DNA of 8,691 bases from a virus (taxonomy: Duplodnaviria > Heunggongvirae > Uroviricota > Caudoviricetes), in the IMG/VR virus record IMGVR_UViG_3300029498_000126. The stretch is one strand, 5' to 3'. Below are positions 1 to 8,691 of the stretch, one piece after another. How positions within the stretch are numbered: the first letter of the stretch is position 1; the number at the start of each line of letters is the position of its first letter. The notes below the pieces were generated by a model. It had not been told where the DNA came from and made no database searches. It saw only the letters and a program-made list of their open reading frames with translations. The position numbers and the translations under genes were made by a program.

Positions 1-435
1 ATGAAAAAAGAAAACCGCCCCGGACAGCAGGCGGCTAACATAGATATTCGCGGATCTGATGTTACGCCACCAGCGCCCACCACACAAGCGCCACGCCGCA
101 CACCGAAGAAGCACCGCGCCCGCGTCTATATGCTACGCACTGGGGTAGAGGGATGGACAGAAAACGACATTCTGCGCTACTGCCGCCTTTCGTCTGGAAG
201 GAACTACGCCAGCGAGTTAGAACGCAGGCTTGATATTCAGTTAGAGCGTATCGACGAAAAGAATCCCGACGGGATCGGGTCACATTTACGCTATCGCTTT
301 ACCGGGCGCGGTGACGTTCTAAAAGTTATTCGGCTTGTGAACCATAACGCCGACGCTGGGGGCTATCAGGGACTTTCTCAGCCTGAAATTGCCGACATTC
401 TCAATCTATACCCGGACAATCTCACCGCCGCCTAA
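1..435 (+). CDS. hypothetical protein (144 aa), basic/Pro-rich N-terminus; possible DNA-binding regulator
   Basis: Complete ORF from ATG at position 1 to TAA at 433-435. N-terminal stretch is basic and proline-rich (PRRTPKKHRAR). Followed 12 bp later by the next gene with a GGAG RBS in between, suggesting co-transcription. No family recognised by eye. Confidence 0.45.
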   Translation: MKKENRPGQQAANIDIRGSDVTPPAPTTQAPRRTPKKHRARVYMLRTGVEGWTENDILRYCRLSSGRNYASELERRLDIQLERIDEKNPDGIGSHLRYRFTGRGDVLKVIRLVNHNADAGGYQGLSQPEIADILNLYPDNLTAA

Positions 436-447
436 CGGAGACTGAAA

Positions 448-1281
448 ATGAACATCGAAAAAAGCAGATTAATTTCTGAGGCCGCCCCTCATCTGAACGC
501 CTATCAGGGCACAATTAACGGTAATGAATTTGCCGCAATTGTCCCGGTTATTCCTGGTCATATCGGTGGGCGTGAAACCAATATTGTTAGCGCAAAAGCG
601 TTACACAAAGCGTTGGGCGTGGGAAAAGACTTCTCTACATGGATCACTGATCGCATCTCTGAATATGACTTCACCATTGGGCACGATTACTCAGTCCATA
701 AAACTATTTCCCCAAATTTGGGGAAAAGCCCGAATGGCGCGGCTTACAGCAAGATTAAGCACTCTGGCAGACCCGGCAAAGACTATCTGTTAAGTGTCGG
801 AATGGCGAAAGAACTGGCAATGATCGAACGCACCGAACAGGGCCGCGCTATCCGCCGTTATTTCATCCAGTGCGAGGAAGAATTACAGCGTAGCGTGCCT
901 GAAATCGCCGCCCGCTATCGTCGCCAGCTAAAAGCCCGTATCAGTGCCGCAAACAACTTTAAGCCGATGTGCGATGCGCTGAATATGGCCCGTGCCGAGA
1001 TGGGTAAAACGACGCAGCAACACCACTACACAAACGAGAGCAATATGATTTCTCGTATCGTTCTTGGTGGGCTAACTGCTAAGCAGTGGGCGCGGATAAA
1101 TGGCTATTCTGGCGAACCTCGCGACCATATGAACGCAGAACAGCTTGAGCACCTCTCATATCTCGAAAGCACCAATATCACGTTAATTGATATGGGCATG
1201 GAATATGAGCAGCGCAAAGGAGAACTCACCCGCCTGTCGCAACGCTGGCTCGCTAAACGTCTGGAGGTAAACCATGCGTAA
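448..1281 (+). CDS. phage antirepressor-like protein (AntA/KilAC-type N-terminal domain)
   Basis: 277-aa ORF with GGAG 6-9 nt upstream of ATG 448. N-terminal half carries motifs I recall as typical of AntA/Bro-type antirepressor domains (SAKALHKALGVGKDFSTWITDRISEYDFTIGHDY ... RPGKDYLLSVGMAKELAMIERTEQGRAIRRYFIQCEEEL). C-terminal half resembles antirepressor C-terminal regions. Assignment from memory of the family consensus, not a search. Confidence 0.6.
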   Translation: MNIEKSRLISEAAPHLNAYQGTINGNEFAAIVPVIPGHIGGRETNIVSAKALHKALGVGKDFSTWITDRISEYDFTIGHDYSVHKTISPNLGKSPNGAAYSKIKHSGRPGKDYLLSVGMAKELAMIERTEQGRAIRRYFIQCEEELQRSVPEIAARYRRQLKARISAANNFKPMCDALNMARAEMGKTTQQHHYTNESNMISRIVLGGLTAKQWARINGYSGEPRDHMNAEQLEHLSYLESTNITLIDMGMEYEQRKGELTRLSQRWLAKRLEVNHA

Positions 1282-1456
1282 CCATAATCCGATGCCGGGA
1301 AGCCGTTACAAGGATTCGCACGGGGCTGTAGTGACCGTACAGCGCGTCGAGCATAACCGAGTGACCTTTTACCGCGAGGGCTATCAGTCGCCATGTGTTC
1401 AGCCTTTGGAGAGATTCGTTAATGAGTTCGTGGAGGTGCGCCGTGATACTGAATGA
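1274..1456 (+). CDS. hypothetical small protein (60 aa), translationally coupled to the antirepressor-like gene
   Basis: ATG at 1274 overlaps the upstream stop (ATGCGTAA arrangement). The upstream gene's last codons contain GGAGG (1263-1267) as a coupling RBS. Protein composition is plausible (MRNHNPMPGSRYKDSHGAVVTVQRVEHNRVTFYREGYQSPC...). Confidence 0.4.
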   Translation: MRNHNPMPGSRYKDSHGAVVTVQRVEHNRVTFYREGYQSPCVQPLERFVNEFVEVRRDTE

Positions 1457-1972
1457 ACCTGCCGCCCAGAAAGAAGCCTTTAATCTGGCTAGCCTGTTAA
1501 CAAATGTTAACCCTTACAACCTGTCAAAACCTGACATTCATCGCCGCGCCGTTGCGACAAATGACGACATTTTAGAGGCGTTTTCTGGGCTGAGAATTGG
1601 GCTGCGAATCCTAATAAATCCTAAGTTTTTTTCGAGTTTTGCGACCAGTACGCGCACGCGCGAAGGTGAGTTTTGCGAGTCCATAAAAAAGAGCTTGCCG
1701 TTATGCGGCAACACGGTTTATGGTTATAAGGCACCTCATAAAACGGGTGCCGGGATTAGGACCCCGCAGGCAATCGAGGCGATACATGACGCGCCAGCGT
1801 CTTTTTTTGTATCGGCGCACACGCACACCTTATCAATGGTGGGCTGTATGGGGCTGACTTCGGTCAGGCTGGTTTCCTTGATTGCCAGTAGTCCTAACCC
1901 TGTACAGTCCACCGCCAGCGAGCTTAGGACCTCCGGCGGTGGCTATAAACCATCAATCAAGGAGGCTGCCAC
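1457..1972 (+). promoter_or_regulatory. long untranslated leader with repeats and stem-loops upstream of the primase operon; candidate promoter/operator and RNA regulatory region
   Basis: No convincing ORF on either strand. Contains direct repeats TGTTAAC x2 (1495-1501, 1505-1511) and GAGTTTTGCGA x2 (1634-1644, 1668-1678), and perfect stems TTGCCG/CGGCAA (1695-1700/1706-1711), GGCACC/GGTGCC (1730-1735/1746-1751), CTGAC-TTCG-GTCAG (1854-1867) and CCACCGCC/GGCGGTGG (1909-1916/1935-1942), the last just 5' of the RBS of the first operon gene. Confidence 0.4.
1788..1810 (+). terminator. candidate rho-independent terminator within the leader
   Basis: GC-rich hairpin GACGC-gcca-GCGTC (1788-1801) followed directly by TTTTTTTGT (1802-1810). 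The stem is short (5 bp), so confidence is moderate. Confidence 0.4.
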
Positions 1973-2167
1973 ATGCTGGCTACTACCCCTACCCAAAAAC
2001 CGCAATTTATCTGGATTATCGCCGCAGTTCGCCGCGATTGCCCGACAATTACCGCCAAAATTCATCATATTGCTGCCGAGTCTGAACGCGATGCTCGCCG
2101 TTCTCTGGTGCGCGATCACGTCTGCTTTTTTGCTGGTCGTATCCGCATGGAGGTGGCACATGATTAA
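1973..2167 (+). CDS. hypothetical small protein (64 aa), first gene of the primase operon
   Basis: Strong RBS AGGAGG (1960-1965) 7 nt upstream of ATG 1973. Stop overlaps the next start (ATGATTAA). Confidence 0.5.
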   Translation: MLATTPTQKPQFIWIIAAVRRDCPTITAKIHHIAAESERDARRSLVRDHVCFFAGRIRMEVAHD

Positions 2168-2378
2168 AACCTACGATGTGCATATGGGTCCCCTCGAACG
2201 CACAAGCCAGATCATCACACTGACAGAAGTGATTAACGACATTCTGGTGAGCAACTCTCCCTCACGAGACGAAAGACTGAAGGCGTTACTCGCGATATTG
2301 GATCTCGCCGTTCGTGACGTTCATTTCCTGCTGGAAGGTGGCGAAATGCCAGTAAAAACGGGGGCAACCAATGAATAA
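2160..2378 (+). CDS. hypothetical small protein (72 aa)
   Basis: ATG 2160 preceded by GGAGGTGG. This is the in-frame 3' part of the long 1395..2378 ORF, but that ORF's 5' part runs through the non-coding leader and terminator. Stop overlaps the next start (ATGAATAA at 2371-2378). Confidence 0.5.
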   Translation: MIKTYDVHMGPLERTSQIITLTEVINDILVSNSPSRDERLKALLAILDLAVRDVHFLLEGGEMPVKTGATNE

Positions 2379-2565
2379 CTCAATTAATACCCCTCGCCTT
2401 ACGTCCGCACTTCAATTAATCGAGCAAGCAGCGGCTGTCCTGGTTGCTGTCAGTCTTTCGGCTGAAGAAATGGACGCTACTGATGTCGTGGATGCGATTA
2501 AAGCGTGCTCATCTTTGGTTAACGATGCCCGTGCAGAGCTGGTAATTCTTGGGGGTGAAAAATGA
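2371..2565 (+). CDS. hypothetical small protein (64 aa)
   Basis: Start overlaps upstream stop. 3' end overlaps the next start by ATGA (2562-2565). Ala/Val-rich acidic protein. Confidence 0.5.
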   Translation: MNNSINTPRLTSALQLIEQAAAVLVAVSLSAEEMDATDVVDAIKACSSLVNDARAELVILGGEK

Positions 2566-2825
2566 ATATCAACTTAATTTATCGTCATCCGTGTGAGCTG
2601 GAAATTGAATCATTGCTGAGCCGTGAAGAGCCATATCCAGACACATTCACTCTTGCAGATCGCACGACTGAACGGCTTACCAGAGCGCGCACAGGTCTGG
2701 TTCATGTGATGAATGAGATTCTTCCATCGGTGGGAGGGGAACAGGCGACAGTAATCACTAGCTGGCTACAAAAAGTTACCTCTCTGATAGATATCAGTTT
2801 AATCGATGCGGAGAGTGCGAAATGA
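2562..2825 (+). CDS. hypothetical small protein (87 aa)
   Basis: ATG 2562 preceded by GGGGGTGA. ATGA overlap with the next gene at 2822-2825. Confidence 0.5.
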   Translation: MNINLIYRHPCELEIESLLSREEPYPDTFTLADRTTERLTRARTGLVHVMNEILPSVGGEQATVITSWLQKVTSLIDISLIDAESAK

Positions 2826-3043
2826 CCAACATCCAGCTCATTGAAGCGCAATGTCGCATCGAACAGGTTCAGACTGTTTTAGGGTTCTGGCTTGAAGGGG
2901 CCAGCCCCAGCAACAGAGACAAGTTAATGATTGGCGCGGTTATGTCACTGCTCAATGGCGTACCAGAAGCTATTCAGGAAGCAGACGAATTGTTGGGCAA
3001 ATATGAGTTACAGAATCATTCAGGCGAGGCGAAACATGAATAA
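2822..3043 (+). CDS. hypothetical small protein (73 aa)
   Basis: ATG 2822 preceded by GGAGAG. Stop overlaps the next start (ATGAATAA at 3036-3043). Confidence 0.5.
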   Translation: MTNIQLIEAQCRIEQVQTVLGFWLEGASPSNRDKLMIGAVMSLLNGVPEAIQEADELLGKYELQNHSGEAKHE

Positions 3044-3638
3044 TTTCTTAACTTTCCATGCAGAAGCAACGCCTGACGGCGTAAACATCATGCACCGCAG
3101 CAACGATGGCATGACAGAACGCGTTGAGACCGTCTCATATATTGATGCCGTAAATCGTCTGGATGCCGGGGATTATGACGATAAACCAGATGAAGGTATG
3201 TCAATACATCTCGCTATAGCCGATGGCGGCAACCAGGGATATTTCGATTACACATCACAGCATAACGTCATTATGTGGAGATGGCTGATCGCAACAGTAT
3301 TCATGCTGGAAATGAGAGAGGAAAACGGCACTGTCAGCATCATTGATGATACTGGCAATCCTTCCGAAGTGGCTGTTTATTCCAACGGCATCGTCGCCAT
3401 GCCGCTGTATCCAGTAGCAGAGCGCCTCGCTATGGCAAACAACATTGAGGGAGCGATGATAGAACGTTTTGGCATCGAGTCTGGCACAGAACGCTCCATC
3501 ATTTTCTACAGAGCCATGATGGATGTGGAACAAGGAGCACTGACTCCATTTGGTCGTGAAACGCTTGCTGAACTTCACAACAGCTTTATAGCTGAACTGA
3601 ATGAAAACGGCATGCCATCGGAACCAGTGACGCACTGA
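3036..3638 (+). CDS. hypothetical protein (200 aa)
   Basis: Track ORF 2931..3638 trimmed to the in-frame ATG at 3036, which overlaps the upstream stop and is preceded by GAGG. The 5' extension would overlap the previous gene by 113 bp. No family recognised. Confidence 0.5.
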   Translation: MNNFLTFHAEATPDGVNIMHRSNDGMTERVETVSYIDAVNRLDAGDYDDKPDEGMSIHLAIADGGNQGYFDYTSQHNVIMWRWLIATVFMLEMREENGTVSIIDDTGNPSEVAVYSNGIVAMPLYPVAERLAMANNIEGAMIERFGIESGTERSIIFYRAMMDVEQGALTPFGRETLAELHNSFIAELNENGMPSEPVTH

Positions 3639-3648
3639 GGATGGAACC

Positions 3649-3990
3649 ATGATTACTAAAAATTTCCGACTGAATGCGCTGGCGAATAAGTATGCGTCGG
3701 CACTGTATAACCACATTACCTCCACCAGCGGCGGGGACTATTTCATGGTTGATGCGGACGGCCTCGCCGTCCGTGTGGAAATCGTCAATGGAGTAAAAGG
3801 CGTTCGCAGCCTGATCGATAGCTACACACTGGCAGCCATGAAAGTGTTCTACCCGCAGTGGGAAACCGTGGGGATCGAGCTTCTTGATCGTTGCGTCACT
3901 AAGGACGGATTGACTGACGTCGGGCGCGAGATATGGCAAAGCATGATTAATGATATGGGCGCGACCGTGGCAGGAGGCAACCATGCGTAA
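3649..3990 (+). CDS. hypothetical protein (113 aa), translationally coupled to the primase
   Basis: RBS GAGGATGG upstream of ATG 3649. Stop TAA 3988-3990 overlaps the primase start (ATGCGTAA). Confidence 0.5.
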   Translation: MITKNFRLNALANKYASALYNHITSTSGGDYFMVDADGLAVRVEIVNGVKGVRSLIDSYTLAAMKVFYPQWETVGIELLDRCVTKDGLTDVGREIWQSMINDMGATVAGGNHA

Positions 3991-6742
3991 TATCGACCTT
4001 ATCCGCGAAGTGACCAGCGCCGCAGCAGGGCGCTGGCCTTATGTGCTGGCTGGATTGTCTATCGACGTGCCTGATTCATCGCGCCGCCATTCTCCATGCC
4101 CTGCATGTGGTGGAAAAGACCGTTTCAGATTCGACGACAACGGGCGCGGTAGCTTTATCTGCAACCAGTGTGGCGCTGGTGACGGGCTGGATTTAATCAA
4201 GCGGGTTAACAACTGCGACACTACGGAGGCGGCACAGCTTGCCGCTGACGTGCTGGGTATTGATTACCGGGCAGCGCAAACCGACCCGGTGGCAGCGAGC
4301 CATAGAAGAGAGCAACTGGAAGCTGACCGCCAGCAGCGTGAGCAGGAGCGCCAGAAACAGGCAGCAGAGGACGCAGAGCAGCGAAGGGCTACGTTTGCCC
4401 GTCTGTATGCCGGAATGCGCCAGAGTGTCACACAGGGCGAATCTGATTACCTGCAATCAAAAGGGCTGACCGGGTTTAATTACCCGGTTATGTCTGATGG
4501 TTCGCTACTCCTGCCGCTGGTGGATGAATCCGGCGCAGTAGTGGCGGCGCAGACCATCACGCCGCAGGGAGATAAACGACTCCTGACAGGTTCAGCAAAG
4601 CGCGGGGCATATCACGCCGTAAACGCGCCAGAATCGCCGCAGAGCGTTTTAATTGCCGAGGGGCTGGCGACGGCCCTTTCAGTTCACCTGATGCGCCCGG
4701 ACGCGCTGGCAGTGGCAGCAATTGACGCGGGCAACCTGCTACCCGTTGCCGAAGTGATGCGCCGGAAGTATCCACAGGCACAAATAATCATCGCCGCAGA
4801 CAACGACCACCACCAAAACGGAGAAGCCAATACAGGCAGGGAGGCCGCAGAGAAAGCCGCCTTGTCCGTGGCTGGATGGGTGGCACTGCCGCCGACAGAC
4901 TACAAAGCCGACTGGAACGACCACCACCAGCAAAACGGGCTGGAAGTCGCTACGGCTGCGTTTAACGACTCGATGTACCAGATTCAAGGGGAAGCCGTTA
5001 AACCACGATTGCAGGCCATTGAGGGCGGTAAAACTGACCATCCAGAGAAAGACCCACTAAAACCCCACATTGAGAGCCGAAAAGATGTCGTTTTCTGGGT
5101 AACGCCGAAGGTGGACAAGGAAAGCGGGGAGATCATCAACGCTGAAAGCTGGTTATGTTCACCGTTGGAGGTTATCGGCACGGGACGCGACGACAAAGAT
5201 CAGTATCTTATTATCTCATGGCTGGCATTTGGTGCAGGCATACCGACAACAGCGGCTATCCCGCTGGCTGATATTGGCGAGCGTGAAGGCTGGCGCACCC
5301 TGAAAGCTGGTGGCGTCAACGTCACAACGAAAAACAGCCTACGGGCGATTCTTGCCGACTGGTTACAGCGAAGCGGCTCGCGTGAATTGTGGCGCGTTGC
5401 TCATGCTACAGGCTGGCAGTGTGGGGCATACATCATGCCGGACGGGGAAATCATCGGCACACCTCAGCGGCCTGTTTTGTTCAGCGGGCGCAGTTCAGCC
5501 GCTGCCGGGTATACCGTAGCAGGAACGCCTGAAAGCTGGCTTAACAGTGTTGCGCGGCTGGCATACGGCAACTACGCGATGATGACAGGCATCGCCGCAG
5601 CACTGGCAGCGCCATTAATCGGGGTGGCAGATCGTGACGGATTCGGGATTCATTTTTATGAGCAATCGAGCGCCGGGAAAACAACCACGCAGAACGTGGC
5701 GAGCAGTCTTTACGGCAACCCTGATGCCTTGCGCCTGACGTGGTATGGGACGGCGCTGGGGCTGATAAACGAGGCCGCCGCCCACAATGACGGGCTGATG
5801 CCGCTGGATGAAGTCGGACAGGGCGCAGACCCGATAAGCGTTTCTCAGTCTGCCTATGCCCTGTTTAACGGCGTGGGGAAATTGCAGGGAGCAAAGGAAG
5901 GAGGCAACCGGGATCTGAAACGCTGGCGCACCGTGGCAATCAGCACCGGGGAAATGGATTTAGAAACGTTCATCGCCACCGCAGGACGCAAGACAAAAGC
6001 GGGGCAACTGGTGCGACTGCTGAATATCCCGCTGAGTAAGGCGGTGCGCTTTCATGAGCACCAGACAGGGAAAGATCACGCCGACGCGCTGAAAGACGCT
6101 TACCAGCACCATCATGGCGCTGCCGGGCGGGAGTGGATTAGATGGCTTTCAGACCACCAGCAGCAGGCGATTGATGCCGTTCGTGAGTGTGAAGCCCGAT
6201 GGCGAAGTCTAATCCCTGCTGACTATGGGGAACAGGTTCACCGTGTAGGGGCGAGGTTCGCCATTCTGGAGGCCGCTTTACTGCTGGGTGGCGTGGTTAC
6301 TGGCTGGGATGCTCAAACGTGCCGGGATGCGATACAGCACACCTATAACGCATGGCTGAAAGAGTTCGGCACGGGGAACAAAGAGCACCAGCAGATCATC
6401 GAGCAGACGGAGGCGTTTTTAAATGCCTATGGGCTGAGTAGATTCGCGCCGCTGGGTTATGACCCGCGCGATTTACCCATCCGTGATTTAGCCGGGTACA
6501 GGAAGAAGGGGAACCACGACGGCGACCCGATAATTTTCTACACCTTCCCGGCAACATTTGAGCAGGAGATCGCACGGGGTTTTAATGTCAGGCAGTTTGC
6601 CGAAGTTCTCAAGAATGCAGGAATGCTAACACCACCAACGAGCGGGCGAGGTTATCAGGGGCGGGTAAGGGAAGGAGGGCGGCAAATTCGCGTTTATGTG
6701 CTCAACTTCATGGATGAGGAAAGCAGCCAGCCAGAAGAATAA
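3983..6742 (+). CDS. P4-alpha-like DNA primase/helicase (zinc finger + Toprim primase + P-loop helicase/ori-binding C-terminus)
   Basis: 919 aa from ATG 3983 with AGGAGG 7 nt upstream (the track ORF begins 11 codons earlier at 3950). Cys motifs CPACGG...FICNQCG at about 4097-4175. Charged Q/E/R-rich linker. Toprim-like acidic motifs (LIAEGLATALS; IIIAADNDHHQNGEANTGREAAEKAA). Walker A SSAGKTT (~5671-5690) and Walker B LMPLDEVG (~5800-5820). Architecture matches satellite-phage P4 alpha-type primase-helicases. Confidence 0.9.
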   Translation: MRNIDLIREVTSAAAGRWPYVLAGLSIDVPDSSRRHSPCPACGGKDRFRFDDNGRGSFICNQCGAGDGLDLIKRVNNCDTTEAAQLAADVLGIDYRAAQTDPVAASHRREQLEADRQQREQERQKQAAEDAEQRRATFARLYAGMRQSVTQGESDYLQSKGLTGFNYPVMSDGSLLLPLVDESGAVVAAQTITPQGDKRLLTGSAKRGAYHAVNAPESPQSVLIAEGLATALSVHLMRPDALAVAAIDAGNLLPVAEVMRRKYPQAQIIIAADNDHHQNGEANTGREAAEKAALSVAGWVALPPTDYKADWNDHHQQNGLEVATAAFNDSMYQIQGEAVKPRLQAIEGGKTDHPEKDPLKPHIESRKDVVFWVTPKVDKESGEIINAESWLCSPLEVIGTGRDDKDQYLIISWLAFGAGIPTTAAIPLADIGEREGWRTLKAGGVNVTTKNSLRAILADWLQRSGSRELWRVAHATGWQCGAYIMPDGEIIGTPQRPVLFSGRSSAAAGYTVAGTPESWLNSVARLAYGNYAMMTGIAAALAAPLIGVADRDGFGIHFYEQSSAGKTTTQNVASSLYGNPDALRLTWYGTALGLINEAAAHNDGLMPLDEVGQGADPISVSQSAYALFNGVGKLQGAKEGGNRDLKRWRTVAISTGEMDLETFIATAGRKTKAGQLVRLLNIPLSKAVRFHEHQTGKDHADALKDAYQHHHGAAGREWIRWLSDHQQQAIDAVRECEARWRSLIPADYGEQVHRVGARFAILEAALLLGGVVTGWDAQTCRDAIQHTYNAWLKEFGTGNKEHQQIIEQTEAFLNAYGLSRFAPLGYDPRDLPIRDLAGYRKKGNHDGDPIIFYTFPATFEQEIARGFNVRQFAEVLKNAGMLTPPTSGRGYQGRVREGGRQIRVYVLNFMDEESSQPEE

Positions 6743-6766
6743 TCTTTTTTCACATACGTAGTTTTA

Positions 6767-7027
6767 GTGTTGTCTCAGTTGTCTTTGTTGTCTCATTTTG
6801 TAAGTTACATTGATTTATAAGGATTTTATTTTAATTTCTGAGACAACATTGAGACAACATTTAGCCATTTTGAGACAACAGGGCGAACGTGTGTTTTTAG
6901 TCCGGCAGGCAGTGAGACAACATTTATGCCGGGTGAGACAACACGAAATTGCAAATGTTGTCTCAGCAAAACCCAGACGTGGCGCGGCCTGTAGAGCCGT
7001 GAGACAACAAAGACAACAGAGACAACA
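6767..7027. repeat. iteron array (TGAGACAACA / TGTTGTCTCA), probable origin of replication
   Basis: Core GAGACAAC on + at 6840-6847, 6851-6858, 6872-6879, 6914-6921, 6935-6942, 7001-7008, 7019-7026 (plus AGACAAC 7011-7017). Reverse complement GTTGTCTC at 6769-6776, 6787-6794, 6957-6964 (plus GTTGTCTT 6778-6785). Spacings of 11, 21, 42, 21 and 9 bp suggest helical phasing. Lies just 3' of the primase/helicase gene. Confidence 0.75.
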
Positions 7028-7057
7028 CTATTTTTGTTTATATACAAAAAAATCTGG
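7028..7057. other. AT-rich tract adjacent to the iterons, candidate DNA unwinding element
   Basis: ctatttttgtttatatacaaaaaaatctgg is strongly AT-rich and abuts the last iteron. Confidence 0.4.
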
Positions 7058-7130
7058 CGAAGGTGTCCCACAATAAGACGGTGCCGGGCAATCTTCATTA
7101 GCAAAACTAATAATTCGAGGTATTCGCAAA

Positions 7131-7592
7131 ATGACAGCACAGATATCAGCCTACGGGCGGCTGGTGGCAGATCCCCAGACCAGAACGACAAACAGCGGCG
7201 GCAGCATGACAATGGGGCGTTTAGCGGTGGCACTGCCTTGCCATGCAGCAGAGGGCGGAGAGGTTACTTTCTGGCTGGGCGTGGTGGCATTCGGCAAACA
7301 GGCCGACGCACTGGCAGGACACGTTAAAGGCGATTTAGTCAGTGTTGCCGGAGCGATGCAGGTCAATCAGTGGGCGGGCAAGGATGGCGGTACACAGCAG
7401 GGGTATCAGGTAGTAGCCGACAGCGTGATCAGCGCCAGAACGGTACGCCCCGGCGGGAAGCGGGCCGAGTCAGTCAAAGCAAGTGGAGCCAGCAGGGGCC
7501 ACAAAACGCAATCCGCGCCGGGATGGGAGCTATATAACACCCCTGATGATTTTGACCAGCGCCCACCATTCGACGATGAAACGCCATTCTGA
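7131..7592 (+). CDS. ssb: single-stranded DNA-binding protein (SSB family, OB fold) with acidic C-terminal tail
   Basis: 153 aa. N-terminal region follows the SSB pattern seen in E. coli SSB (G.L..DP..R...GG...; W..VV.FGK.A....KG..V...G......W). C-terminus ...DDFDQRPPFDDETPF closely resembles the E. coli SSB tail ...DFDDDIPF. GAGG about 11 nt upstream of the ATG. Confidence 0.8.
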   Translation: MTAQISAYGRLVADPQTRTTNSGGSMTMGRLAVALPCHAAEGGEVTFWLGVVAFGKQADALAGHVKGDLVSVAGAMQVNQWAGKDGGTQQGYQVVADSVISARTVRPGGKRAESVKASGASRGHKTQSAPGWELYNTPDDFDQRPPFDDETPF

Positions 7593-7603
7593 GGGGGGTG
7601 AAC

Positions 7604-7915
7604 ATGGTAAACGACAGCAAAGCTGAGGATCTGGAAGCAAAAGGGCTGTACCGACGCGCCGCCGCGCGATGGATGGAAGTCATGCTGTTATGCACCGAGG
7701 ACGATGATCGGGAATGGATAAAGCGCCGCCGTGAAACGTGTCTGGAGAACGTGAAGCGCCCGCCCGTGAAGGTTGAGGACTTTGGCGACCTGCATAAAGC
7801 TGTCACCGAAACTCAGCACCGCATGGGGATAGCGCAACCGAACGGTAACGCCTTCCGGTTAAATGGCGGCAAGAGGCAACGGCAGACCACCAGCGGGGGC
7901 GATGGTTCGCAGTAA
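7604..7915 (+). CDS. small regulator, PerC-like (103 aa)
   Basis: ATG 7604 with GAGGGGGG RBS directly upstream (the track ORF starts at a GTG at 7598). N-terminus MVNDSKAEDLEAKGLYRRAAARWMEVM...REWIKRRRETCL resembles what I recall of PerC-family activators, which are common in enterobacterial prophages and satellites. From memory, not a search. Confidence 0.45.
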   Translation: MVNDSKAEDLEAKGLYRRAAARWMEVMLLCTEDDDREWIKRRRETCLENVKRPPVKVEDFGDLHKAVTETQHRMGIAQPNGNAFRLNGGKRQRQTTSGGDGSQ

Positions 7916-7930
7916 GTTTCGCACCCAAAC

Positions 7931-8299
7931 GGCGGAAAATTTAGTACTGTTTAGTACGGATTTAAAACCCTAGCCGCGCCAGTAGCGGGCTGGAAGCCAA
8001 ATCCTGATTCAGGACGTCCTAAATATCTGGTTCGTTCCACTGGTACGCAGTCAGGTGCGCAGCAAAACTGCGCATTCAACGTGCGTACTACCTGACGAAT
8101 GCTAACGGTGGTATTGCGTACAGAAATTGCGAATTCGCAGTAATTTCTAAGCGCGAATTGCTCATTCGAAAAATAGCGGAGATGCCTGTTATTGCTGGCT
8201 TGGGCGCTATCCGTTCGCAGTAGATGGCGGAAGTTAGATATACAGTTTTATTAAGGTATTGTTAGGGTTTGTTAAGGTTTTTGCGCACAAAAATGCGCA
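7931..8299. promoter_or_regulatory. dyad-symmetry-rich intergenic region: candidate operator/promoter and/or packaging (cos/pac-like) site
   Basis: Direct repeats TTTAGTAC x2 (7931-7938, 7941-7948). Interleaved inverted repeats GTACGCA (8043-8049)/TGCGTAC (8082-8088) and GTCAGGT (8050-8056)/ACCTGAC (8090-8096) around TGCGCA-N7-TGCGCA (8056-8074). Near-perfect palindrome GAAATTGCGAATTCGCAGTAATTTC (8123-8147). Tandem ~10-bp T-phased repeats (8251-8280). Second TGCGCA-N6-TGCGCA site (8282-8299) 15 bp upstream of the ATG at 8314. Confidence 0.45.
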
Positions 8300-8313
8300 C
8301 AGTGAGCCGTTAA

Positions 8314-8691
8314 ATGAAAAAAAATAGCCAACAATCAAGATCGGGATGGGGTGGCAAGCGGAAAGGCGCAGGCGCACCATTGGGCAATACTAATGCCGTC
8401 AAACATGGCGAACGCAGTCGGCGGGCATTCTTCCCATTTGAGGGGGGAGAGGCGCTTTCTCCGCTGGTGCGAAATCGTGCAAGAAACCTCATGCTGGCTG
8501 AGAGATACGGGCTATTACTGGCGAATAATCCGACGCCGGGAACAGAAGAATGGCGCGAGATGACATTGATTAACGGACTCATGGGGCTACATGCCGACAG
8601 AATCGCACGGCTTGAGCTGAGATTAGCGAGAGCCGTTTCAATGCAAGCAAGGCGGGATCTGCGAAGGGTTAAAAAAAGCGGCGCATGTTAG
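8314..8691 (+). CDS. hypothetical basic protein (125 aa); possible small-terminase-like or packaging-associated DNA-binding protein
   Basis: Complete ORF ending with TAG at the window edge. Basic glycine-rich N-terminus GWGGKRKGAGAPLGNTNAVKHG is reminiscent of DNA-binding N-termini seen in some phage small terminase subunits. Helical Arg-rich C-terminal half. Functional call rests on that motif and the position after the dyad-rich region, so it is tentative. Confidence 0.4.
   Translation: MKKNSQQSRSGWGGKRKGAGAPLGNTNAVKHGERSRRAFFPFEGGEALSPLVRNRARNLMLAERYGLLLANNPTPGTEEWREMTLINGLMGLHADRIARLELRLARAVSMQARRDLRRVKKSGAC

Follow-up and report, generated by a model that had tools for sequence, protein, structure and literature searches.

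The segment at positions 1443-2167 of the window, the whole stretch of 8,691 nucleotides analysed here, is very likely the immunity region of a phage-satellite island of the PICI-like kind, and we hold with equally high confidence that every part of it is homologous to the eta/seqA/cI/seqC/kil region of satellite P4 and to the c4-icd region of immI in phage P1. The IsrK/C4 immunity system is a known one with entries in Rfam; what the window carries is thus a real but ordinary example of it, and no new principle is involved. The initial annotation had described 1457-1972 as a structured leader of ~515 bp upstream of the primase operon, and had suggested that the operon is governed by RNA immunity of the P4 CI kind through premature termination. 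The central idea of P4-like RNA immunity proved right, with premature termination as its probable means. The fallback, some different RNA-level control, was wrong: the C4 and isrK models of Rfam score alike on the window and on P4, placing the element in the same family as P4 CI. The features of the region, together with the primase gene further downstream, are as follows.

1443-2378, plus strand: eta-like open frame, with GTG at 1443, a Shine-Dalgarno sequence GGAGG at 1432-1436, and a start overlapping the DUF4222 stop at 1454-1456
1457-1694, plus strand: unstructured spacer forming the 5' part of the eta-like frame, with small tandem and direct repeats at 1586-1609, 1607-1624 and 1634/1668
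1695-1724, plus strand: putative constitutive promoter (equivalent of PLE/P51b), with -35 TTGCCG at 1695-1700, an 18-nt spacer and -10 TATGGT at 1719-1724
1731-1808, plus strand: IsrK-type small RNA (P4 seqA region), Rfam RF01394, 63 bits
1731-1750 and 1751-1766, plus strand: hairpins 1 and 2 of isrK, hairpin 2 holding target a1 (1753-1762) in its loop; target b1 follows at 1769-1779
1788-1808, plus strand: intrinsic terminator of isrK, with its stem at 1788-1801 and T-run at 1802-1808
1832-1919, plus strand: C4/CI-type antisense RNA, Rfam RF01695, 80.2 bits
1837-1853 / 1898-1914, plus strand: 17-bp closing stem of C4, around a TTCG hairpin at 1854-1867 and a second hairpin at 1868-1889
1873-1886 and 1890-1900, plus strand: C4 recognition elements b' (loop of the hairpin 1868-1889) and a' (single-stranded)
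1909-1916 / 1935-1942, plus strand: alternative hairpin of the unprocessed transcript, using the 3' strand of the C4 stem and holding a2 in its loop
1923-1965, plus strand: downstream targets (equivalent of P4 seqC or P1 a2/b2), with a2 at 1924-1930 and b2 at 1954-1965
1973-2167, plus strand: icd/kil homologue of 64 aa, NCBIfam NF033153 phage_ICD_like, 71.7 bits; 44% identical to P4 Kil (E = 4e-11)
3983-6742, plus strand: primase-helicase, distal gene of the operon, with the Pfam domains Zn_Ribbon_Prim, Toprim_3 and DUF927

A scan of the whole window against Rfam placed two families above their gathering scores inside the segment. The isrK model matched 1731-1807 with 63 bits (gathering score 50, E = 5.5e-12), and the C4 model matched 1832-1919 over its full length (model positions 1-87) with 80.2 bits (gathering score 45, E = 5.7e-15). 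The expected architecture accompanies both matches. The isrK region consists of two 5' hairpins followed by an intrinsic terminator, and the C4 region of a long closing stem around two hairpins, supported by covariation, whose exposed segments match targets both upstream and downstream in the same transcript, one of them over a ribosome-binding site. The stretch 1731-1975 folds far better than shuffled sequences (z = -4.03), as does C4 alone (z = -4.42), for which the minimum-free-energy (MFE) structure reproduces that of the Rfam model. Several elements pointed out by the initial annotation find their place in this scheme. The TTCG-tetraloop hairpin (1854-1867) and the 8-bp GC-rich stem 5' of the ribosome-binding site (1909-1916 / 1935-1942) are both present, and the hairpin with a T-run in the middle of the segment (1788-1808) is the intrinsic terminator of isrK, which is the only plus-strand site resembling an intrinsic terminator in the 8.7-kb window.

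The structured leader is nevertheless confined to the right-hand part, 1731-1972, of what had been proposed. The left-hand part, 1457-1730, is not more stably folded than its shuffled versions (plus strand, z = -0.57; minus strand, z = +0.16), and a separate structured RNA there was rejected on these values, on the lack of any Rfam match at E <= 1 and on the lack of a phage homologue. The leader would begin at an internal promoter around 1695-1724, instead of at 1457, with the first 240 nt being unstructured. The direct repeats noted in the left half do exist (1586-1609, 1634/1668, 1607/1617) and are above chance: five local repeats were observed in 1457-1730 against 0.15 expected, a number reached in one of 500 shuffles. 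UMNK88-type islands have unrelated sequence in place of this spacer. Searches for a phage homologue of the spacer found none, and a pattern scan of IMG/VR for the conserved block 1518-1640 found nothing. We also considered an upstream antiterminator, in which 1546-1566 would pair with 1798-1818 (18 of 21 pairs, including G-U), and rejected it on comparison with the island of Escherichia coli D5, where the 1546-1566 arm is the same and the terminator region has changed so that it does not fit this arm any more.

The putative promoter matches eight of 12 consensus positions. It lies below the threshold of the consensus scanner, which did not call it, and we therefore class it as inferred. Sequences at the same position, just 5' of isrK, are TTGCCT-18-TATAGT in P4 and TTGCGC-18-TATGCT in a P1-like phage, and the hexamers are retained in the D5 island while the spacer differs. 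Transcription would start near G1731. The perfect hairpin at 1695-1711 does not stand as a feature, since it runs into the putative -35 box and is no longer perfect in D5; as a terminator it was rejected also for its lack of a plus-strand T-run. A promoter-like site on the minus strand (1596-1569) was discarded as well, as such sites are no commoner than in shuffles and neither a minus-strand gene nor a terminator accompanies it.

The recognition elements of C4 tie the parts of the segment together. Its b' and a' are complementary to b1 and a1 inside isrK and to b2 and a2 downstream, with a perfect 10-nt complementarity between 1875-1884 and 1954-1963, and b2 covers the Shine-Dalgarno sequence AAGGAGG (1959-1965) of icd/kil. 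The predicted duplex energies are -38.9 kcal/mol for C4 with isrK (-22.4 +/- 3.9 for shuffled targets) and -35.4 kcal/mol for C4 with the downstream target (-20.4 +/- 3.6 for shuffled targets), so that the cognate energies lie about four standard deviations under those of shuffled targets. A pattern scan of IMG/VR yielded 71 homologous loci, from which 28 distinct modules were aligned. Across these 28 modules the intramolecular stems reach 91.6% pairing and include 15 pairs in which both partners have changed, whereas sliding the partners by one to three columns as a control left 33-51% paired. The isrK hairpins are 98-100% paired with five covarying pairs, and the C4 stems 99-100% paired with eight pairs in which both sides changed. 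The alternative hairpin at 1909-1942 is 93.6% paired, two of its pairs having changed on both sides. The pairings of C4 with its targets covary too: a1:a' and b1:b' together are 79.9% paired (14 of 21 pairs covary) and a2:a' and b2:b' together 85.5% (13 of 19). Taken alone, a2:a' is 99.5% paired with five of seven pairs covarying, and eight of 12 pairs covary in b2:b'. For the isrK terminator, pairing by alignment amounted to 24%, owing to a 1-nt misalignment, and each sequence was therefore folded separately; the hairpin and T-run were found in this way in 26 of the 28 homologues, with differing stem sequences. The clearest single case of covariation is the E. coli D5 island, which is 100% identical to the window over 1440-1691, covering the spacer. 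Beyond that point D5 has another specificity cassette, with concerted changes in a1, b1, b', a', a2 and b2. An absence of compensatory covariation, by which the initial annotation would have let its idea fall, is thus decisively contradicted by the abundance of such changes.

Upstream in the window lie genes for a 144-aa protein, an AntA antirepressor (448-1281) and a DUF4222 protein. The first translated gene after the putative promoter is icd/kil, which at its stop overlaps with the start of the following gene (ATG at 2160); several small ORFs, the Zn-ribbon/Toprim/DUF927 primase, a single-stranded DNA-binding protein (SSB) and a PerC-like regulator follow. Ten GAGACAAC iterons were found 3' of the primase gene, against 0.19 expected. 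In related E. coli genomes the island adjoins yicC and carries an integrase and an HTH regulator. Neither the window nor the annotated islands of D5 and UMNK88 showed any of the P4 hallmark genes sid, psu, delta and epsilon. The primase resembles P4 alpha in its N-terminal 331 aa (35% identity, E = 6e-45) and differs in its C-terminal half, which is of the DUF927 type instead of the D5-type helicase of alpha. Owing to the missing hallmark genes and the different helicase half, we classify the element as PICI-like rather than P4-like; the gene set of integrase, HTH regulator, AntA, primase, SSB and PerC is also that of PICI-like elements (compare PMC11773190). EcCIMP1, a similar island, was described with a conserved "Ash family protein" and with the RNAs unmentioned (PMC11773190).

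The closest overall match in layout is P4 (NC_001609). Its CI RNA region (8507-8420, minus strand) matches the C4 model with 74.9 bits and its seqA/terminator region (8692-8615) the isrK model with 60.8 bits, so that both families occupy equivalent positions and the order of the parts is identical. The internal promoter of P4, like the putative one of the window, lies within a long ORF whose start is placed where the preceding gene ends. The P4 ORF, 8168-8767 on the minus strand and beginning with three consecutive Met codons, is eta; it extends from the end of vis through PLE, seqA, cI and seqC, and its last part is the 65-aa Kil. The frame at 1443-2378 is its counterpart. A Kil homologue as the first translated gene (44% identity), a primase operon behind it, the homologous N-terminal domain of the primase (35%) and an iteron-rich origin next to the primase gene complete the P4-type arrangement. 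There are differences too. The recognition sequences are unlike those of P4, implying a different immunity specificity; the distance from terminator to C4 is ~24 nt in the window vs ~110 nt in P4; and three extra genes, including that of the AntA antirepressor, stand between the AlpA-like regulator and the module. The eta-like frame is moreover in the +1 frame relative to kil, unlike in P4 and in the D5 island, where the two are in frame, an observation that counts against our best explanation, as does the absence of P4 hallmark genes from the part of the element seen. Matches to the C4 and isrK families of Rfam have been noted in Gram-negative PICIs (PMC10111431), and IsrK and C4 have been equated with P4 seqA and CI RNA (PMC3632133); the pair is thus already reported for both P4-like satellites and Gram-negative PICIs.

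The P1-like phage shares 79% DNA identity with the window over isrK, c4 and the start of icd. Both matches were found there as well, that of isrK with 49.5 bits being just under the gathering score of 50, and an annotated Icd gene follows. The layout of P1, namely a1 b1, then c4 (b' a'), then a2 b2 with b2 over the icd ribosome-binding site, is that of the window, and the P4 layout of seqA, seqB and seqC equally matches its order of target, C4 and target. As in the heteroimmunity of P1 and P7 (PMC12197685), it is the loop sequences that carry the specificity. The P1 order c4-icd-ant was not found in the window, where small ORFs and the primase come after icd, and the AntA gene lies upstream (448-1281). 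The downstream cargo is accordingly a replication operon vs the antirepressor Ant in P1, and the C1 repressor/operator context of P1 is not present in the window. That the antirepressor is upstream, unlike in P1, is a further point counting against the best explanation. Among the IMG/VR loci, the module is followed by Rha-type antirepressors in lambdoid phages, by Icd-Ant in P1-like phages and by Icd and primase in satellites.

Closest in sequence is the isrK-orf45(STnc1160)-anrP locus of Gifsy-1 and Stx phages, the window being 90% identical to the Stx-phage module. In an Stx2 phage, both Rfam families exceeded their thresholds and are already annotated as ncRNA. The ATGs of orf45 are conserved in the window at 1836 and 1848. 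Lambdoid loci of this type control an Rha/AnrP antirepressor, and they have no eta-like frame that extends to the 5' side of the promoter. IsrK has been described as a structural homologue of P4 SeqA (Hershko-Shalev et al., PMC4825925), and in Gifsy-1 the processed RNA of ~80 nt downstream of IsrK is STnc1160 (PMC4825925).

From the analogy with P4, P1 and Gifsy-1, we propose the following mechanism. The internal constitutive promoter (~1695-1724) would produce a transcript from ~1731, most copies of which would end at the intrinsic terminator 1788-1808 and yield the IsrK-type small RNA. Transcripts that read through would be processed to a stable C4/CI RNA of ~80 nt. In P1 and P4 such an RNA is matured from a longer transcript by RNase P, with the addition of PNPase in P4, and in the window the mature RNA probably spans ~1838-1917, ending in the GCCA motif found at 1914-1917 after the long C4 stem. 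Its b' and a' would then pair with a1/b1 in isrK and with a2/b2 downstream, covering the icd/kil ribosome-binding site and blocking translation. The untranslated RNA would be terminated, probably by Rho, leaving the small genes and the primase off and the island quiescent. As no plus-strand intrinsic terminator was found in the window 3' of C4, or anywhere other than in isrK, the sequence is compatible with Rho-dependent termination, and nothing stronger. When transcription arrives from the antirepressor/DUF4222 operon, on the other hand, ribosomes coupled to DUF4222 may translate the eta-like frame through the RNA elements, from GTG 1443 to 2378, and this translation would prevent termination and switch replication on. 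The precedent is P4. According to the passage of PMC10111431 that summarises Forti et al. (1999), transcripts from the promoter internal to eta are rapidly terminated via interactions of CI and seqA, Kil is translated upon read-through, full-length Eta is produced only from the upstream late promoter, and "Eta translation prevents termination".

The strongest competitor of this proposal, which we consider possible but distinctly the less probable, borrows the mode of action of IsrK in Gifsy-1. The read-through transcript would adopt an inactive fold, which IsrK opens in trans, thereby activating icd and the primase operon, with C4 being mainly a by-product. The MFE fold of 1731-1975 indeed pairs isrK with the C4 loops, in a manner similar to the inactive "structure A" of Gifsy-1 (PMC4825925), conservation extends to the alternative hairpin 1909-1942, the module is highly similar to those of Gifsy/Stx-type lambdoid phages, and the predicted pairing of IsrK with C4 is stronger than that of C4 with its downstream target (-38.9 vs -35.4 kcal/mol). 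Nevertheless, (i) b2 over the icd ribosome-binding site covaries, in keeping with C4 being a direct repressor, as it is in P1 and P4, and (ii) kil/icd, the primase and the eta-like frame make up the genetic context of P4. The two modes use the same parts and are not mutually exclusive. Binding of Hfq and trans-activation of the read-through mRNA by IsrK have been shown for Gifsy-1 only (PMC4825925). Since IsrK of Gifsy-1 is an activator of translation and not just a passive target, a point that counts against our best explanation, IsrK of the island may have an effect of either sign, mainly as a decoy or target as in P4 or as a trans-activator as in Gifsy-1.

The proposed P4-like mechanism leaves room for a further idea. 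The a' of the island is identical, and its b' nearly identical, to those of the Gifsy-1/Stx phages, by which a cross-reaction is predicted with energies of -33.6 to -35.4 kcal/mol; some satellites of the P4-alpha type share the same elements to the same degree. It is conceivable, if rather improbable, that IsrK and C4 of a phage cross-regulate the replication operon of the island, that the RNAs of the island act on the antirepressor of the phage, and that the override of termination is uncoupled from full-length Eta-Kil. If so, cross-regulation by a resident or incoming phage would amount to helper sensing or interference at the RNA level, and the +1 eta-like frame, merged with the next gene, would separate the override from the production of Eta-Kil.

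The eta-like frame itself requires comment, as the statement that the segment has no credible coding capacity was misleading. The frame is uninterrupted for 337 codons, with no stop from before 1395 to 2376. It includes the putative promoter, both RNA genes and the targets. Its overlap with icd/kil is in the +1 frame, and the stop that closes it at 2378 also closes a 72-aa gene. The frame is open across the module in all 11 satellite-type loci, including P4, for at least 291 nt before the C4 ATG and at least 327 nt after it, and is closed inside isrK in all 14 lambdoid loci. It stays open even where the spacer is unrelated, for instance in UMNK88, which fits selection for translation itself, as for eta of P4, and not for a protein sequence.

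That a real protein, of the "Ash family" or the long "Icd-like" kind, is encoded in the region, with the RNA structures being incidental, is by contrast very unlikely. Such a reading can draw on the long open frame with its Shine-Dalgarno sequence and GTG start, and on Pfam PF10554 (Phage_ASH), which matches the translation at ~1719-2006 with 53.8 bits. In PGAP annotation the frame moreover stands as an "ash family protein" of 342 aa in UMNK88 and as an "Icd-like protein" of 241 aa in D5, and all 35 identical copies of the module among the matches listed are annotated as "ash family protein". In addition, orf45 of Gifsy-1, in the same frame and with ATGs equivalent to 1836 and 1848, is translated (PMC4825925). 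However, the span of the Pfam match is precisely that of the two RNA genes, isrK and C4, with the targets, and despite the HMM match comparison revealed no amino-acid-level conservation under PF10554 or the NCBI label. The frame contains stops in 18 of the 28 diverse modules, overall no fewer than a second frame (54 vs 67), the predicted products, of 52-165 aa, are inconsistent in length and have very few members, and the frame persists across unrelated spacers. Of the 16 codons that differ from those of a Klebsiella island, 15 changed non-synonymously, and the substitutions are spread as 12/7/7 over the codon positions, free of third-position bias, while the paired changes obey the rules of RNA base pairing. 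A conserved protein-coding gene, which the initial annotation had foreseen as fatal to its proposal, was therefore not found. The portion of the frame at 1443-1730 was considered separately as a conserved protein and rejected, as it yielded no more than 23 ORFs, which had few members and varied in length.

It is likewise very unlikely that the segment is what remains of an immunity region that has decayed and lost its function in a defective island. Many similar islands are classed as possibly defective (PMC11773190), and the window combines two island types in a mosaic. Against this reading, both RNAs reach the scores of the working copies in P4 and P1, every pairing is intact and cognate, 35 complete genomes among the matches listed carry the module with 100% identity, and the downstream operon is uninterrupted.

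The identification of the segment as an immunity region bears first on annotation. At present RefSeq describes the locus as an "ash family" or "Icd-like" protein of 241-342 aa, a label that in UMNK88 hides the real icd; it should be replaced by isrK and C4 as ncRNA genes together with icd/kil, within an eta-like frame. The comparison with the D5 island, with its breakpoint at 1691/1692, also shows that immunity specificity is swapped as a cassette. For the islands themselves, those with integrase, AntA, primase and PerC are likely held quiescent by RNA immunity in the style of P4.

By sequence comparison, the window is a mosaic of island types, and the mosaic positions fall at three places:

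1438, mosaic position
1666, mosaic position
1691/1692, mosaic position

The D5-type island of E. coli matches window 1-1691, with positions 1440-1691 being identical, and the UMNK88-type island matches 1666-3640 at 96%. Islands of differing specificity swap the immunity cassette as one unit, with the -35 box at one end and the icd start at the other. A repeat block lies upstream of the -35 box:

1518-1640, ~125 nt, tandem-repeat block with three small tandem repeats

The block comprises AACCTGNCA, TGGGCTGNGAAT and AATCCTAA, each present twice, and is nearly identical in a Klebsiella quasipneumoniae island (L076), whose flanking sequences share only about 65-80% identity with those in the window. 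This near-identity could be no more than the trace of a recent cassette transfer. The block carries no structure signal, and a search for a phage homologue of it found none.

All of the genes in the window are on the plus strand, and the isrK terminator (1788-1808) is the sole plus-strand intrinsic-terminator-like site in positions 1-8691. When translated, the isrK and C4 RNA genes (1719-2006) match Pfam PF10554 'Phage_ASH' as well as the family that NCBI names 'ash family protein'. As a consequence of these matches, RefSeq places coding sequences of 241-342 aa over the RNA genes:

UMNK88-type island (L078), 7120-8148, RefSeq CDS over RNA genes
D5 island (L004), 10443-11168, RefSeq CDS over RNA genes

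In the UMNK88-type islands, the ash-type CDS also takes in two further genes, the true icd/kil and the small one that follows it.

Directly 3' of the primase gene, ten copies of GAGACAAC occur in both orientations within 6769-7026 (chance expectation, 0.19). They all fall within an imperfect inverted repeat of 54 nt (6742-6795 / 7000-7053). The array has the look of an iteron-type replication origin and can be compared with ori/crr of P4. Further downstream, a non-coding segment of ~78 nt (7974-8051) has a second copy in the D5 island (L004 17025-17102, 86% identity), which sits ~70 nt past the equivalent of the window's end. The window closes with one further reading frame:

8314-8691, plus strand, 125-aa ORF, N-terminus basic and rich in Gly

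This ORF occupies the expected place of PICI packaging genes; no PHROG family matched it at E <= 0.001.

The C4 recognition segment a' (within 1873-1900) is identical in Stx-type lambdoid phages (L005, L036 and L040, lambdoid loci of the Rha type) as well as in some P4-alpha-type satellites (L015 and L057), and the b' loop is nearly identical between the window C4 and the same phages and satellites. The predicted cross-reaction amounts to -33.6 to -35.4 kcal/mol; a non-cognate cassette gives about -19. RNA cross-immunity between phages and satellites is possible.
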